Below are positions 21,001-27,000 of a DNA stretch of 51,874 bases, in pieces (positions within the stretch are counted from its first letter, which is position 1; the number at the start of each line of letters is the position of its first letter). Position numbers: made by a program. Origin of the DNA: Fidelibacterota bacterium (GTDB taxonomy: Bacteria > Fidelibacterota > Marinisomatia > Marinisomatales > UBA2128); assembly GCA_046861645.1 (NCBI GenBank), contig JBHHUM010000010.1:1-51874 (forward strand), read 5' to 3'.

Positions 21001-24000
21001 ACTGGTTCATCATCTCTTTTAGCAGCATCACCCACTACGAAAAGATTCTCTACTGATGTCTCACCCTTATAATCAATCCAGATATGGCGTTTCTCTTCAG
21101 TTTGATTTTGATCCATAAGTCTGGCACTTACCTGTCGGGCTAAATCATTATAAACCCTGTTCAACCCTAAGGATACCAGAGCAAATTTGACTTCAACCGA
21201 ATCGCCATTCTCAAAGACAAAGCCTCGCAGTTGTTTTACACCATCGCCCAGAAAATTTGCAATTAACGTAGGAATAACAACAATACTATATTTTTCTAAT
21301 ATCTTTTTTCGATTTTCTGAAATTACTGGTTTTTCTCCATTCGTCAGAACATAGACTTTAATCCCATAACGTTCGTGCAACATCATAGCTAATTCCGCTG
21401 CTACGTCTGTGTGCCCCAAAACAGCTACTGTATCGTCCTTAGTGAGATGTCCTTCACAACGGATGCAATAAAGCACCTGCTCCCGATTAGCAAAAGGATA
21501 TATCCACTTTGGTGATTCCTCCACCCTTCCGCTTTTCCCTTTTTTACGGAGGTATGGTTGTTGATCCATTACCCCTGTCGCCAGGACTACGGCTACTCCG
21601 GAGAACGATTGACTGGACGTACTCACTTCGAACCCTGAGCTCGCTCGTATCAGTGATAAGACTTCTTCCTCGATTATCTCCAGATCAGGATATCCTTCCT
21701 TAATCCTTTCTAGTGTGTTTCGAATAATAGCTCTATTGTTGATATGATAATGTTCACTTTCTACCAGGGCAGCAGCGTCGGGGAATCCTCCATTTCTAAG
21801 TGTCTTCTGTACTTGATCCTTGATGATATCTTCATGAAACCCTATGATGTTATCAAGGTTTACCACCCATTGTGATCGGCTTCGTTTACGTGTGAACTTG
21901 CTGCCCAAAATCCACACAGCTTTCATACCATTCTGAGCTGCCCTCAGGGCTGCTGCTGAGCCACCAATGCCACCCCCAATGATGATTACATCTTTCATAA
22001 TTTCGTCTTTACACTATCCGAAAATACAACTTGGCTCACTATTCCCATTAACAGTATGGTATTGTTATCATTTTAACTCTCCTCTAAAAATGACTCAATT
22101 TTAGAAATATTAATGTGATCTCCTAAATGTCCACCATAAAACGCAGTACTGATTACACCTCTACGATCGATGAGAAAATCAGCCGGAAGAATAGCCTTGT
22201 CCCCTTCCATTCTCCCTGGCAGAAATCCCTTGAGTATCGGTCTCAAAAGCAAAGGTGCTGATAGTAAAAATCTTAACCAAGAGGATTCTGCACAATAAAG
22301 ACGGTGGAGCTTTAGTTCCGGGTCAGGTATGATCGGAAATGGTGGTTTACTTTCACCTAAGTATTTACTGATTGATTCAGATGGAGATTCAAAGACTCCT
22401 ATCATGACTAGTCCTCGATTCTGCCACTCCTTATAGTGTTGACTCAACTCAAAGAGACGCAGATTACAGAAAGGACAAGAGGCATACCTGAACATTGACA
22501 ACAGGACTTTCTTCCCTTTAAGATCTCCCAAGTTAACAATACCACCAGAGATGTCTTGCATAGTAAACAGGGGTGCCCTCTGTCCAGGCTGCAAACGCAT
22601 TGCTTACTGTCCATTTGTGGAGTTGAGACTCCAATCGTAAGTAAAATACCTGACCTGATAACTGTTGACAATCTTCTCGATTTCTGTTTCGGAATACCCT
22701 TCAAGATACTGAAAAATATAATGTAATACATCCTCACTCACCGCTTCGAAATCTTCGCTATACCATTTAAAAATTCGTGACAACCAGACAATTTTCTCAT
22801 CGCGATCAATGACGACATTTTCTGGATTATTTATAAACTGTCTCGCTTTTTCATCCAGCTGTTGATCAAGATCCTCACCCGAAAATATCCTCTGCCCCAA
22901 AGGTGGACAACTATTGGAACCGCAATTGATTGCAAAGTGCATTCTGGGATCGGCAAATACATCTCGCAAAATTTTACGTTCAATCTGGTTCAATGTCATC
23001 CTTCGACCACCGATAAGAAAGGTCTTCCGCCAGAATAATCCCATACCCCACCCCAAATCCTTCACACTCTCGATTTCAGGATTCTCTACAATAGAAATCA
23101 TGACCAAAGCATTGTAAGCGTTAATCCAGTAAGCTTTAGCATCATTATTAGTGGGAAACCTCTCTGGATGATTTACAGGGCTTACCTTTTTTAGAAACTC
23201 TACGAAATTCTTTAGATTTACCGGATTTTCCCTGAGGGCATCGTAGTTCACTTCCCCATTTTCGTTAACAAATCTCGAAAATACTTCATCAAGTAATTCT
23301 ACTTGGGGTATGGCATCCTCAGTTGTACTAATTAATGATATTAATCCAAATAACCACATTTTCGATCTCCATTCTCACACCATTTGCTCAATTAGTTTCA
23401 ATCACATCACCTCTTGAGTAAGACATCTCCTAGATTAGTCTGGGATCGGAAATAAATTCAACAATGAAAGGATCATTGGAATTTAATGCTGATTCCAATG
23501 CCCCTTCTATTTCCTTCTCATGCGTTACTCTGACTCCACTTCCCCCACAGATTTTGGCATATTCAGAAAAATCAGGATTATGTAAACTGGTATGCCAAGT
23601 TTCCATATCCCCGGCCTGGAATTCTTTCGTAATTTTGCCTAACTCATTATTGTTCAGCAAAATTAAAGTAATAGGCATATTGTATTTCACTGCTGTGGTA
23701 AATTCAGCCATATACTGGCCAAATCCACCATCTCCTGCCAAAGCCACAACCTTCCTTCCTGTACCTGCTGCCCAGGCTCCAATTGCTGCTGGAAAACCAA
23801 AGCCAATTGAGCCCAGGTACCCCGACATGATTATCCTTTGTTCTTTACATTCAAAGTAACGACCAAAGGAGTAAGTATTATTCCCCACATCTACACAGAT
23901 GATCGCATCATCAGGTATATGGCGGCTCAAAGCATCAAATATCACAGCCGAATTAAGACCCATCTCAGATTGATCTTCCCTTCGTCTGGCTTTCTCCTGG

Positions 24001-27000
24001 CGCCATTTCCTCCATCGCGAGGATATTTCTTTTTCTACGTGGATCCTGTTCTGTACCTCTAACTGGTCAGATCCAAGAATGGTCTCAACTGTAATACCAA
24101 CATCACCCCAGAGAGGCACATCTACGGAACGAAATTTACCTAGCATCAAGCGATCATGATCAACCTGGATAGTGGGAATATATTCGGCTATACCCGTATG
24201 AACCGAAAATGAAGCACCTAATACAATGAGTAAATCAGCAGTTCCCATCATGACACTAGCTACCTGAATACCACTTCTTCCCAACACTCCACAAGCGAGG
24301 GGGTGGTTATCAGGTATTAACCCCTTAGCTTTAAAAGTAGTCACGATCGGTGCTTGTATTCTTTCAGCTAGTGCAAGGACTTCTTCCTTGAAATTAATGG
24401 CACCCTTACCGACAATAATACAAGGGCGTTTTGATTTATTTATAAGACTAATAGCATTATTCAACTCTTGCTCAGGAGGAGTAATTTCGAGTGCGGCGAT
24501 ACGCCCTTCTCGCTCCACCATTGGACGGGGATGAAGAGCCGGCAATACTTGTACTTCATCTGGTAAAATCAGGGCAGTAGGTCCATTTTCTACTTCAGCA
24601 TGTTTTATTGCCAAAGCCATAAGTTCTGAAGCATTTTCAGCGCGAAGAACCGTCTGTTGCCATCGTGTGACAGCTTCAAAAGCTGAGAATAAATCTACTT
24701 CCTGAAAAGTACCGGGACCCATCACCTGTGTATTCACCTGTCCGGCTAAGGCCAGCAGGGGTACATTATCCACATGAGCATCCCACATACCCGTAATCAT
24801 ATTCGTGGCACCAGGTCCAGCTATTGAAAAGCAAGCCGCCGGGCGACCGGTAAGTTTGGCATAGGCTGAGGCTGCAAATGCTGCTGCTCCTTCATGTCGA
24901 ATTCCAAAGTATGTTAATTTTCCTTCTTTTTCCATCTGATGGAGCGCATCTGCAAAGCCAAGATTTGAGTGTCCTACCATTCCAAAAACAGTATCAACTC
25001 CCCAGTTGACCATTGTCTCAACCATCCGATTAGAAACTGTTATTCTAGGAGTCTGTTCTTCAATGCCAATATAGACTCCATCATCCCTTTCTTCGACAGG
25101 ATAGACTTTCACCTTATCATCAAAACCTTCTGGTGCTACTCCTGTTTGGGGATGAAACTGATAGGCATGCCAGGGACAGATAACCCATCCGTTTTCAATT
25201 AGCCCCTCGCCCAGGGGTCCCCCCTGGTGTGGACATTTGTTATCCAGAGCTGAAATCTTCCCCTGGTGATGAACTAAACAAACTTGACGGGTTCCTGCCA
25301 CCACTGTTTTTACCCTGTTATCGGAGAGAATATCTGATTCCTTTATCTTCCACCAGTTGCACCTATTTTTTTCCTCTGATTTATTTGTAGTTTTCACTGT
25401 TTACTCTTATTGGTTTGTTAAAAATACTCTGAAATTTCAGTCCTTGGGTGGGACAAATGCTGATACACCCACCACAACCAATACACGGTTCTTCCAGTCC
25501 AAATGAGCCCATGATTGGCTTTCTATCAACATGAGCATAGGACGCTACATCAATACCCATAGGACATGCTCTTGAACAGAGATTGTAACCCGTGCAGTTC
25601 TCATTGGCTTTCACTCTAAATCGTGATCTGGTGAATCTACCAACTAGTTGCATCCCCTTTGCTAAGGGACATCCGTAACGGCACCACACCCGAGTTCCCA
25701 GAAATGGATAAGCTCCTACCCCAACAATAGATCCAAAAATAAGATCTATTACTAAATCTTGTGTATTTTTCATTTCATCAACCACACTATCAGCAGTAAT
25801 TATCTGAGTACTATCGAGTAATAGAAGAAAACCGAATAACAGCACAAAACTGAGAACTATTGTTTCCAAATGCTCAAAGTTTTTTGCCCTCTCTCCTCTG
25901 GGTGTCCCTTGTCGTACCCATTTTTGACCCCACTTCGTGCTCCCCACGGTTTCTGCCAGATTCCCACAAGAGCAAAACCAAGTACAGTAGCGTTTACCTA
26001 AAAACCAGACTGTTGCAGGAATCAATACAAAAAGATAGGCAGCCAAACCCCAATTTAGAAATCCCGGATAGATATAGATATGAGCCTTCTTACTGGCAAT
26101 AGCTGGGACATCACTCCAGAAGGAATTTCCTGCTAAAAGGGGCCCTATTACATAAGGAAATCCAAAAAAGACAACAGTCTGAACAATGACTATAGATACA
26201 AATTTCCAGAATTGATAACTGCTGAGATGACCTGGCTGTTTTTTATTTACACTGTACACATTCTTCTTTCCTAGCAGTACTTTCATTGCCAATACATCGA
26301 CAAGAATTGTGTAAAACAGAGCATACCAAAAAGAGAGATTCTTCCCCAAAAACATTAGTTCACTAACATCGTTGACAAACCATAATGGGTACTTATAAAT
26401 CAGATAAAAGAAAATAACAGAAGGAATAAAGAACACCAGAAACATTTTTTCAGCAACTGATCTTTTCATCATTCACTGAAATATTGATTAAATGCTTTAA
26501 TTTGTTGTTTTCTCAAAGTCACTTTCCAAGGTTACTCCTAAGGCTAAAACATTACGATTTACAAAATTGAAGTAATTAGCAATTAATACAATCTGTAGAA
26601 TTTGTTCATCGCTGTAACCCAATTTCTTAAGTCCCTCAATGTCTTGATCGGTTACAGCATAGGGCTCCAAAGTTATCTTGTGAGCCAATTGTAAAACGAC
26701 CAGAGTCTTATCTTCGAGATGATCTTCTAAAAATGACCAATCTAGGACTCTGACGGCATTAACAAGATCCTGATCCTTCATTAAACGAAGCAGAGGTTGG
26801 CTATGGTGAGCAACACAATAGTCGCACTGGTTAGTAGCAGAAACGACAACAGCAATGGATTCCAGTAGAACTCTCCCCAATCCTGTCTTCCGTAATTTGA
26901 AAAGTAGAGTGTAGTAGAGATTGAAATGATCCTCCAATGTTTCAGGCAAAAGAGAATGAATCTTAAGTACTTCCGCTACACCTCCACGCTGATTACCTAT

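Follow-up and report, generated by a model that had tools for sequence, protein, structure and literature searches.

A Rieske [2Fe-2S] domain fused to a PoxB-related thiamine diphosphate/FAD enzyme in Fidelibacterota, a candidate built-in electron outlet

Escherichia coli PoxB (PDB 3EY9/3EYA) and the YdaP/CidC-type enzymes (PRK08611, PRK09124) represent a three-domain thiamine diphosphate (ThDP)/FAD architecture, in which Phe465 of PoxB presumably bridges ThDP and FAD. The pyruvate oxidase of Lactobacillus plantarum (POX; PDB 1POW/1POX/1Y9D) delivers its electrons to O2 and forms acetyl-phosphate. Pyruvate and 2-oxoacid:ferredoxin oxidoreductases (PFOR/OFOR) also oxidise 2-oxo acids on ThDP, releasing the electrons singly through built-in iron-sulfur clusters, and in PFOR it is the proximal [4Fe-4S] cluster that takes them from hydroxyethyl-ThDP. 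One-electron transfer is likewise the task of small Rieske ferredoxins, including T4moC (1VM9) and the naphthalene dioxygenase ferredoxin (2QPZ), which in oxygenase systems take electrons from a flavoprotein and hand them on; mouse RFESD (3D89) has the same small fold with CxH...CxxH ligands.

Within the window (the whole stretch of 51,874 nucleotides of Fidelibacterota contig JBHHUM010000010.1 that was analysed), one gene joins a Rieske domain to a complete core of the PoxB architecture (Table 1). The Pfam search reproduced exactly the boundaries given in an earlier note on this DNA, with 52.6 bits for Rieske (residues 14-87; cut-off 20.3) and 42.3 bits for Rieske_2 (residues 14-110). The four cluster ligands named there are seen directly in the translation, as C55-P-H57 and C74-P-W-H77, and are invariant in 113/113 aligned family members. 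Over residues 120-649 the fusion is about 30% identical to E. coli PoxB, with which Glu169 and the GDG...NN and FQE motifs align, while middle-domain residues G330, G332, D388 and G394 are invariant from PoxB through the Rieske-fused clade; FAD binding is therefore predicted by homology. No signal sequence was found at the N-terminus. The ESM Atlas model of the fusion (pTM 0.87, pLDDT 0.89) superposes on that of another fused cluster across residues 7-655 with a TM of 0.97, which suggests that the Rieske domain is fixed on the core.

Table 1. Positions of the fusion gene, its domains and key codons, and the surrounding genes in the window.
Feature	Position	Strand	Remarks
Rieske-ThDP/FAD fusion gene	23430..25397	-	655 aa; GTG start; stop 23430-23432
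Rieske [2Fe-2S] domain, residues 14-110	25068..25358	-	Pfam and ligand motifs
Rieske ligand codons	C55 25233-25235; H57 25227-25229; C74 25176-25178; H77 25167-25169	-
TPP_enzyme_N (Pyr) domain, residues 120-237	24687..25040	-	Pfam; contains catalytic Glu169
Glu169 codon	24891-24893	-	Aligned with PoxB Glu50
TPP_enzyme_M (FAD-type middle) domain, residues 313-438	24084..24461	-	Pfam; FAD binding predicted
TPP_enzyme_C (PP) domain, residues 503-647	23457..23891	-	Pfam
GDG...NN ThDP/Mg motif, G555-N583	23649-23735	-	Inside TPP_enzyme_C
Lys588 codon	23634-23636	-	PoxB Phe465 position
NapH-like membrane polyferredoxin gene	25381..26472	-	363 aa; upstream of fusion; candidate electron acceptor in this genome
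Overlap of NapH-like 3' end and fusion GTG start	25381..25397	-	17 nt
Stretch without DNA match in syntenic G099 contig	23285..26548	.	Exactly the NapH-like and fusion genes
Upstream island part	26497..29044	-	Crp regulator, Thioredoxin_3, DUF6789, CMD/AhpD-like
Crp-family regulator gene	28367-29044	-
Thioredoxin_3 gene	28028-28336	-
DUF6789 membrane protein gene	27573-27995	-
CMD/AhpD-like gene	26497-27066	-
Downstream island part	20895..23359	-	DUF547, AhpC/TSA-like, flavoprotein; present without fusion in G099
DUF547 gene	22604-23359	-
AhpC/TSA-like CxxC protein gene	22073-22600	-
Thioredoxin-reductase-like flavoprotein gene	20895-21998	-
SoxA-like mono-haem and tri-haem c-type cytochrome lipoproteins, CarboxypepD_reg protein	18300..20784	-	Judged outside the unit

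The fusion is one intact gene and not an assembly join, as the earlier note had held. The search with residues 1-260 returned Rieske and TPP domains on a single protein in 120/120 best clusters, and a single open frame crosses the junction in 22 of 300 other Fidelibacterota genomes sampled (51-77% identity). In addition, positions 22600-27100 are unbroken and free of indels in independent per-run contigs from three of four runs of one hydrothermal-vent sample, which may itself be the source of the studied DNA.

By sequence, the core is nearest to the PoxB/YdaP pyruvate oxidases, as previously described, but its assignment to that family did not stand, considering the scores under the NCBIfam cut-offs, the missing lipid-binding tail and the separate clade. 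Among the NCBIfam models, PRK08611 ("pyruvate oxidase") matches best, with 425 bits where the cut-off is 742 (next model, 332 bits), PRK09124 gives 318 bits against 792, and the acetolactate-synthase model TIGR00118, at 328 bits, lies near the PoxB models. E. coli PoxB is the top match among solved structures (E = 1e-74); L. plantarum POX, with a similar ThDP/FAD core, matches at E = 1e-56, and the equivalent of its Glu483 is conserved as E592. In the tree, 11 Rieske-fused and two rubredoxin-fused proteins form one clade (SH-aLRT 100) and EcPoxB falls outside it, in another clade; the fusion belongs to a tight, widely distributed group related to the pyruvate:quinone oxidoreductases. It differs from PoxB in the added N-terminal Rieske domain, in the lack of the C-terminal lipid-binding/activation peptide, and in Lys588, at least 90% conserved among aligned family members, which replaces Phe465, so that the electron path may differ from that of PoxB.

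The idea, put forward in the earlier note, that the Rieske domain is an outlet for single electrons built into the enzyme is supported by sequence comparison, since the core lies outside the PoxB family, sister forms carry rubredoxin in the same position, relatives have added iron-sulfur domains, and the lipid-binding tail is missing. All five nearest core relatives with an N-terminal extension (P0248, P0249, P0251, P0255 and P0261; 35-43% identity) carry a rubredoxin there, a carrier with one Fe instead of a [2Fe-2S] cluster, and other family variants have two Rieske domains (about 756 aa) or CDGSH, Fer4_19 and Rieske domains together (870-873 aa). In the alignment, the tail spans about 40 residues in PoxB, P0272 and P0269 and is absent from 3/3 Rieske-fused and 5/5 rubredoxin-fused proteins, the present fusion ending about 8 residues past the TPP_enzyme_C domain. 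The best solved relatives of the Rieske domain are the electron-carrier ferredoxins 3D89, T4moC and that of naphthalene dioxygenase; unlike these, it is joined to its own presumed flavoprotein donor. No extra Cys pair was found in its ligand boxes, which presumably marks the low-potential ferredoxin type.

From these comparisons, we consider it fairly probable that the fusion is a cytoplasmic enzyme that carries out the oxidative decarboxylation of pyruvate or a comparable small 2-oxo acid and is wired through FAD to the Rieske cluster; substrate and acceptor, and the direction taken by the electrons, are those that we infer. The 2-oxo acid would be decarboxylated on ThDP, its two electrons would pass to bound FAD, and from there they would exit singly to a separate acceptor protein by way of the ferredoxin-type Rieske cluster at the N-terminus. 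Such a scheme resembles in outline the working of PFOR/OFOR, which differ from the fusion in their unrelated architecture, lack of flavin, [4Fe-4S] clusters, CoA dependence and usual oxygen sensitivity. It would also differ from L. plantarum POX in that its outlet is protein-bound. A search of the fusion's genome (94% complete) found no acetate kinase, a weak argument for acetate rather than acetyl-phosphate as the product. A malic enzyme gene adjoins the fusion in 4/78 loci, a further hint at the substrate.

In this genome, the Rieske cluster would pass its electrons to the NapH-like membrane polyferredoxin and onward to the quinone pool, a step that we rate as less likely than not, although this protein is the most plausible acceptor here. 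Its gene had been described as following the fusion; both lie on the minus strand, and it therefore comes first. The hand-over proposed in the earlier note is favoured by the gene overlap, which suggests translational coupling, by the joint absence of the two genes from the same-genus genome G099 as a single two-gene indel, and by G224, where no Rieske-ThDP gene was found and a homologue (66% identity) shares one operon with a Rieske-glutamate-synthase-like flavoenzyme. Against it, a NapH-like gene adjoins the fusion in none of 78 loci from other genomes and none of 17 other Fidelibacterota loci, no close homologue was found in the 22 other fusion-bearing Fidelibacterota genomes (one has a 28% match), and none of 82 loci of the NapH-like family has a Rieske-ThDP gene alongside, the usual neighbour being DUF547 (22/82 loci), to which the protein is fused in P0134. 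Like NapH, the membrane subunit of a quinol dehydrogenase, the protein is polytopic, has transmembrane segments that are followed by Cx3C(P) motifs (C163-x3-C167-x-C169 and C264-x3-C268-P), and carries a 2x[4Fe-4S] region at its C-terminus, but it scores only 42.9 bits against a model cut-off of 213, has about six hydrophobic segments where NapH has four, belongs to a family that prefers DUF547, and no nap genes were found nearby.

In other phyla, two neighbours of the fusion recur: a flavoenzyme of the Rieske-glutamate-synthase-like kind and, in 17/78 loci, a ferric-reductase-Rieske membrane protein (Ferric_reduct plus Rieske). The latter, a membrane redox protein different from the NapH-like one, counts in favour of a hand-over at the membrane. 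In 25 of the 49 fusion loci that are flanked by 4 kb or more on each side, both neighbours are missing and the same-strand neighbours are heterogeneous, and thus the fusion has no universal partner. The three-CxxCH cytochrome, flavoprotein and Crp regulator previously reported at this locus are all present as described. A route from the fusion to the c-type cytochrome found no support, considering that the cytochromes are an indel of their own in the comparison with G099, adjoin the fusion in 0/95 other loci (78 plus 17), and have the signal/lipobox N-termini of exported lipoproteins, in contrast to the signal-less fusion.

Rather unlikely, in our judgement, is that the same chemistry feeds soluble partners instead of the membrane, as an oxygen-tolerant source of reductant when 2-oxoacid:ferredoxin oxidoreductases, represented by four POR_N loci in this genome, are damaged. 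The partner could be a stand-alone Rieske ferredoxin of 102 aa on contig C21 (40% identical, with the same CPH(Q/R)GG.LGEG...CPWH signature) or the thiol/peroxide-defence set of the Crp-headed island (Trx_3, AhpD-like, AhpC/TSA-like and thioredoxin-reductase-like proteins). Crp and Trx_3 lie near the fusion in 8/17 other Fidelibacterota loci, in six of these immediately upstream of it and on its strand; the surroundings of the fusion, NapH-like and Rieske-glutamate-synthase-like genes repeatedly contain AhpC/TSA-like, CMD, DoxX/DUF6789 and YjeF_N genes; and the island proteins, which have CxxC motifs and in which no signal peptides were found, appear to be cytoplasmic. However, the same island exists in G099 and so works without the fusion, its genes do not recur beside the fusion outside Fidelibacterota, and the reduction of thiol peroxidases by a Rieske cluster has no precedent known to us.

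Very improbable is a non-redox fusion enzyme, a carboligase or decarboxylase of the acetolactate-synthase type whose flavin would be vestigial and whose activity would be switched by the Rieske domain in response to redox state or oxygen; a regulatory role was also raised in the earlier note. The domain would then be a sensor. TIGR00118 does outscore PRK09124, and Lys588 fits such an enzyme, but pyruvate oxidase is the top family match by about 90 bits, the recurrent neighbours in other phyla are Rieske-fused redox proteins, and the swapping of one-electron carriers between sister lineages and addition of iron-sulfur domains is the pattern expected of a wire and not of a sensor. Most improbable is a flavin-free reaction in which the Rieske cluster takes electrons straight from hydroxyethyl-ThDP by radical chemistry, to which the loss of the presumed Phe mediator and the homology-based nature of FAD binding lend themselves, against the complete middle domain with its four invariant residues and the FAD use known for all characterised close relatives.

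The Rieske-ThDP fusion occurs across hundreds of microbial species: species genomes from many phyla of bacteria and some of archaea contain at least 659 stretches that encode it. As the earlier note had allowed, it is already annotated elsewhere, under the labels "Rieske 2Fe-2S domain-containing protein" and "thiamine pyrophosphate-binding protein" in public databases. The novelty claimed for a Rieske-wired TPP oxidase needs tempering accordingly, although our literature search found no study of the fusion. If the proposed wiring is true, the electrons of pyruvate would leave through a protein-bound carrier.

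The Rieske-ThDP fusion protein encoded in the window is probably a dehydrogenase of 2-oxo acids, in which a 2-oxo acid, probably pyruvate, would be oxidised on ThDP, electrons would pass from ThDP to FAD, and from there they would leave one by one via the Rieske cluster, to an acceptor on a different protein. This reading, in which the flavin, substrate, direction and acceptor are all putative, draws on the domains, ligands, motifs, tail loss, carrier swapping, clade and gene arrangement described below. The union of Rieske and ThDP-enzyme domains on one protein, proposed in the earlier note, was borne out by Pfam, which placed four domains on the 655 residues, and the ligand boxes C55-P-H57 and C74-P-W-H77 were confirmed straight from the protein sequence. 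The gene of the NapH-like membrane polyferredoxin had been described as following the fusion gene; it precedes it, since both genes lie on the minus strand.

Genes and protein domains of the fusion locus
Feature	Position	Strand	Details
Fusion gene	23430-25397	-	655 aa, GTG start
NapH-like gene	25381-26472	-	363 aa; 17-nt overlap with fusion gene
Rieske domain	residues 14-87 of fusion protein		Pfam, 52.6 bits vs cut-off 20.3
TPP_enzyme_N	residues 120-237 of fusion protein		Pfam
TPP_enzyme_M	residues 313-438 of fusion protein		Pfam
TPP_enzyme_C	residues 503-647 of fusion protein		Pfam

The earlier claim that the junction is not an assembly join held, and a chimera was ruled out by one-protein relatives, by single open frames in other genomes and by per-run contigs of a hydrothermal-vent sample. 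The best 120 clusters for residues 1-260 all combined a Rieske domain with TPP domains in a single protein (52-77% identity, or 57-77% by a second listing, over 93-100% of these residues), and in the phylum the junction lay in one frame in 22 of 300 other genomes and in none of the three same-genus genomes. The region 22600-27100 was unbroken in three of the four runs of the vent sample, which may be the source of the window DNA, with 8-10 substitutions and no indels, while in the fourth run two contigs join near 25292. The GC and GC3 values of the two-gene cassette (0.44/0.35 and 0.39/0.34) were unremarkable against the neighbouring genes. A sequence scan of 17000-29600 returned 37 promoter-like sites (30.8 ± 6.1 expected) and 8 terminator-like sites (9.3 ± 3.2 expected), numbers that give little weight to a terminator-like hairpin at 20835-20852 between the flavoprotein and cytochrome genes. 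A lookup of RNA data for 22600-27100 gave no match.

A relative is encoded in at least 659 of 698 pattern-matched stretches (one genome per species), from which 78 loci were kept for a survey of neighbours. These loci include Alpha- and Gammaproteobacteria, Actinomycetota, Chloroflexota, Cyanobacteria (Acaryochloris marina MBIC11017), Bacteroidota, Planctomycetota, Gemmatimonadota, Acidobacteriota and Myxococcota, as well as two archaeal carriers, the haloarchaeon Halomicrobium katesii DSM 19301 and a Heimdallarchaeota MAG. Mean column identity was 66% over 113 aligned family sequences, and the fused family is unusually well conserved, since clustering at 50% leaves three full-length representatives plus fragments. 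The novelty of a Rieske-wired TPP oxidase, as put forward earlier, has to be qualified: no study of a Rieske- or rubredoxin-fused ThDP enzyme was found in the open-access literature and bioRxiv, PMC12288474 being unrelated, but the fusion is widespread beyond the phylum and its clusters already bear the database labels 'Rieske 2Fe-2S domain-containing protein', 'thiamine pyrophosphate-binding protein' and 'pyruvate oxidase'.

Neighbours were counted by clustering raw ORFs, up to 4 kb away, with BLAST, in samples of interrelated genomes; for these reasons the counts are descriptions, not statistical tests. The commonest companion was a Rieske + Glu_synthase (FMN) protein (27/78 loci; 21 of the 49 whose flanks reach at least 4 kb either way), followed by a Ferric_reduct + Rieske membrane protein (17/78; 15/49), unannotated proteins of about 253 aa (16/78; 14/49) and about 79 aa (15/78; 13/49), a weak DUF5996-like protein (12/78; 10/49), a Na/H exchanger (9/78; 7/49) and malic enzyme (4/78; 3/49). 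Neither Rieske-fused neighbour was present in 25 of the 49 full-flank loci, where the 24 same-strand neighbours examined comprised two FMN_red-like proteins, one YjeF_N protein and otherwise unrelated ones. Because neighbours differ between loci and about half of the full-flank loci have neither Rieske-fused one, there is no universal partner; what co-occurs with the fusion is a loosely defined group of membrane redox proteins and proteins with a Rieske domain. In several loci of other phyla (L052, L058, L063-L065, L069 and others) a conserved module was seen, made up of Rieske-Glu_synthase, a membrane-like protein of ~79-124 aa, Ferric_reduct-Rieske, an unannotated protein of ~253 aa, a protein of ~93 aa and, last, the Rieske-ThDP protein; three of the module's gene products have no Pfam family. 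One Fidelibacterota locus has Rieske-Glu_synthase and DUF5996-like genes just upstream of the fusion; in the genome studied here no Rieske-glutamate-synthase-like or Ferric_reduct-Rieske protein was found, the queries matching Rieske parts only.

The hand-over of electrons to the NapH-like protein, proposed in the earlier note, was supported only in part. In its favour stand the overlap of the two genes, the syntenic same-genus genome G099 and the operon of another phylum member, G224. The gene order of G099 (Crp, Trx_3, DUF6789, CMD / DUF547, AhpC-like, flavoprotein / YjeF_N; 67-74% nucleotide identity) is without exactly 23285-26548, the NapH-like and fusion genes, as one indel. The NapH-like gene of G224 seems to share an operon with the gene of a Rieske-glutamate-synthase-like flavoenzyme of 535 aa, the protein type that is the commonest companion of the fusion in other phyla. 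Against it, a NapH-like homologue was found beside the fusion in none of the 78 loci from other genomes (BLASTP E ≤ 1e-5), in none of 17 longer loci of fusion-bearing Fidelibacterota and, as a close homologue, in none of the 22 further genomes in the phylum that carry the fusion, one of which has a 28% match. Close homologues (63-66% identity) occur in 2 of 400 phylum genomes, G224 and G194, both without the fusion, and the fusion was beside the NapH-like family in none of 82 loci (80 metagenome loci plus these two). The NapH-like polyferredoxin can be named only tentatively as the acceptor in this genome.

The NapH-like protein scored below the cut-offs of both NCBIfam models (TIGR02163, 42.9 vs 213 bits; PRK09477, 41.5 vs 234 bits) and has the NapH/MauN-type layout of membrane segments followed by Cx3C(P) motifs and a C-terminal 2x[4Fe-4S] region. 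Its C163-x3-C167, C264-x3-C268-P269, C293/C299/C303 and C330/C333/C336/C340 are invariant in 20/20 homologues. Because these motifs come after the hydrophobic segments, within Arg/Lys-rich stretches, they probably face the cytoplasm, where a cytoplasmic donor could reach them. DUF547 adjoins the NapH-like family in 22/82 loci and is fused to it in the 622-aa protein P0134; in the window, the NapH-like gene and the DUF547 gene directly flank the fusion gene. The G224 locus (L140, G224:C94, 7572-14282), like metagenome locus L143, encodes YjeF_N, Thioredoxin_2, AhpC/TSA, CMD, Rieske-Glu_synthase (535 aa), DUF6789, DUF3047 and the NapH-like protein. Upstream of the NapH-like gene in the G194 locus (L141, G194:C39), DUF3047 is broken up at 8480-8999 into two ORFs, of 93 and 105 aa, that overlap, possibly by a frameshift or an assembly error. 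No bacterial function was found reported for DUF547 or DUF3047 in open-access papers.

A Crp regulator and Trx_3 lie near the fusion in 8 of the 17 Fidelibacterota loci, and DoxX or DUF6789, DUF3047 and AhpC/TSA-like genes are often close to it, a setting that would suit an acceptor that is soluble or part of thiol defence instead of a membrane protein; such an acceptor seems to us unlikely. The c-type cytochrome of the same operon, which had also been proposed to receive the electrons, found no support and was rejected as part of the fusion unit: the SoxA-like and tri-haem cytochromes belong to another indel relative to G099 (17995-20927), distinct from that of the two genes, carry lipoprotein-type signal sequences and were beside none of the other fusion loci (78 + 17).

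Other features of the window were recorded alongside. Between DUF6789 and CMD lies a 506-bp AT-rich stretch (27067-27572, GC 0.34) with no ORF above 66 aa, where the gap in G099 is ~120 bp. Farther along, at 39975-51062, an Rrf2-family regulator (39975-40421) stands ahead of a plus-strand respiratory run with c554-like and c7-like multihaem cytochromes, an 832-aa molybdopterin oxidoreductase, a 4Fe-4S subunit, an NrfD-type membrane subunit, a further cytochrome c, an EB_dh (haem b) protein and another c7-like cytochrome; the run looks like a Psr/ACIII-style respiratory complex. A metal-handling set at 14730-17215 comprises an ArsR-family regulator, a zf_CopZ protein and a MerT-HMA fusion, with a radical SAM protein adjoining, and a cell-envelope glycan cluster at 1809-11204 contains two CDP-glycerol glycerophosphotransferase-like genes, LicD, two nucleotidyl transferases, a sulfotransferase, a heptosyltransferase-family gene, UDP-GlcNAc 2-epimerase and an ABC exporter.

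The designation of the core as 'PoxB/YdaP-type' held for its fold and catalytic residues but not for family membership. The three-domain ThDP fold (Pyr, middle/FAD and PP) is present, with TPP_enzyme_N, _M and _C each at E < 1e-32, and residues 120-649 align with E. coli PoxB (PDB 3EYA; E = 1e-74), with catalytic Glu169 corresponding to PoxB Glu50 and with the FQE motif (F231-Q232-E233) and the ThDP/Mg motif GDG...NN (G555-D556-G557...N582-N583) in common. The protein is not a member of the PoxB/YdaP family, because it departs from it in three defining features: cut-off scores, C-terminal tail and clade. The top NCBIfam match, PRK08611 'pyruvate oxidase', gave 425 bits against an equivalog cut-off of 742, and the other PoxB/YdaP-type models were likewise below theirs (PRK09124, 318 vs 792; TIGR02720, 304 vs 638), the next matches being PRK06457 (332 bits) and acetolactate synthase TIGR00118 (328 bits). 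Of the 572 residues of PoxB, the alignment reaches only 526-531; when 15 proteins were aligned, a C-terminal tail of ~40 residues, which in PoxB is the lipid-binding activation peptide, was present in PoxB and in two YdaP-like proteins (P0272 and P0269) and absent from the fusion protein, which ends ...DPRLI. Moreover, Lys588, with a conservation of 90% or more among 113 family sequences, stands at the position of PoxB Phe465, which lies between ThDP and FAD. FAD as the electron-accepting cofactor, pyruvate as substrate and quinone as acceptor are putative assignments by homology.

The Rieske domain also exceeded the Pfam cut-offs of Rieske_2 (42.3 vs 27 bits) and Rieske_4 (37.2 vs 28.4 bits), and its four ligands are invariant in 113/113 family sequences. 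The ligand boxes, CPHQGG and CPWHAY, have no additional Cys, and this lack of an extra disulfide pair is a mark of low-potential Rieske centres. Its nearest solved relatives are of the carrier type (3D89, toluene-4-monooxygenase ferredoxin and naphthalene dioxygenase ferredoxin). The ESM Atlas model of the exact sequence (pTM 0.87, pLDDT 0.89) superposes on that of another fused cluster with TM 0.97 over residues 7-655, so that the Rieske domain is predicted to sit at a fixed place on the core. The signature CxH(Q/R)(G/N)G.LGEG...CPWH is common to the fused Rieske domain, the Ferric_reduct-Rieske proteins (28-36% identity) and a stand-alone Rieske protein (40%) on contig C21 of this genome. 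The latter, of 102 aa (locus L080 1453-1761, minus strand; CPHRGGSLGEG...CPWHGW), is a possible soluble partner.

Variants of the family include double-Rieske proteins of about 756 aa and proteins of 870-873 aa with CDGSH and Fer4_19 ahead of the Rieske domain, while the next-nearest proteins have an N-terminal extension of 55-65 residues that was a rubredoxin in 5/5 tested. Tandem pairs of complete ThDP-enzyme cores, in proteins of about 1000-1190 aa, were also observed (P0260, P0271, P0275, P0278 and others), P0260 with two N, M, C sets. A quick tree of 46 cores by maximum likelihood (SH-aLRT support only, midpoint rooting, several long-branch rows) grouped the 11 Rieske-fused proteins, without exception, with two rubredoxin-fused proteins in one clade (SH-aLRT 100); four more rubredoxin-fused and two unfused proteins join it (SH-aLRT 87), and the whole is separate from the EcPoxB group (SH-aLRT 93). 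The tail-less core thus carries interchangeable one-electron carriers, which is our strongest argument that the N-terminal domain would be an electron conduit and not a regulator. A non-redox carboligase with a Rieske sensor domain would fit the acetolactate synthase match, but it sits poorly with this exchange of carriers and we judge it quite improbable. Direct transfer from ThDP to the cluster with no flavin, in a protein that retains the middle/FAD domain, appears the least probable of all.

As a ThDP-FAD-Rieske dehydrogenase, the fusion protein would work like a cross between PoxB, to which the ThDP/FAD chemistry is the likeness, and PFOR, to which the built-in FeS outlet is. Pyruvate oxidation has a strongly negative potential, and the oxidative direction would for this reason be the natural one. 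Acetate is weakly favoured as the more likely product over acetyl-phosphate, since acetate kinase was not found in the 94%-complete genome. Four loci of the 2-oxoacid:ferredoxin oxidoreductase type and one of the E1-type dehydrogenase are also present in the genome, so that the enzyme is accessory here, in keeping with its absence from same-genus relatives. More speculatively, and with considerable doubt, it may be an oxygen-tolerant PFOR stand-in giving single electrons to FeS partners: here as a mobile two-gene module with the NapH-like polyferredoxin, feeding pyruvate electrons into or across the membrane and plugged into a Crp-controlled thiol/peroxide-defence island, and elsewhere with the Ferric_reduct-Rieske membrane protein and the Rieske-glutamate-synthase-like flavoenzyme.

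What is new in this work is the NapH-like context, the two-gene indel, the tie of the NapH-like family to a second Rieske-flavoenzyme and the exclusion of the cytochromes from the fusion unit. The window adds a so far unique setting, in which a NapH-like membrane polyferredoxin, a candidate acceptor, shares its gain or loss with the fusion gene. The well-studied routes of pyruvate oxidation are the NAD-linked pyruvate dehydrogenase complex, the oxygen-sensitive ferredoxin-linked PFOR and flavin enzymes reducing quinone or O2. The hypothesis is directly testable, because this highly conserved family, with identity of at least 50% across bacteria and some archaea, occurs in growable cultured strains such as Acaryochloris marina MBIC11017, Halomicrobium katesii DSM 19301, Sulfidibacter corallicola and Pseudotenacibaculum haliotis. 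If true, a ThDP/FAD enzyme with a built-in FeS carrier would represent a fourth route of pyruvate oxidation, possibly an oxygen-tolerant one.
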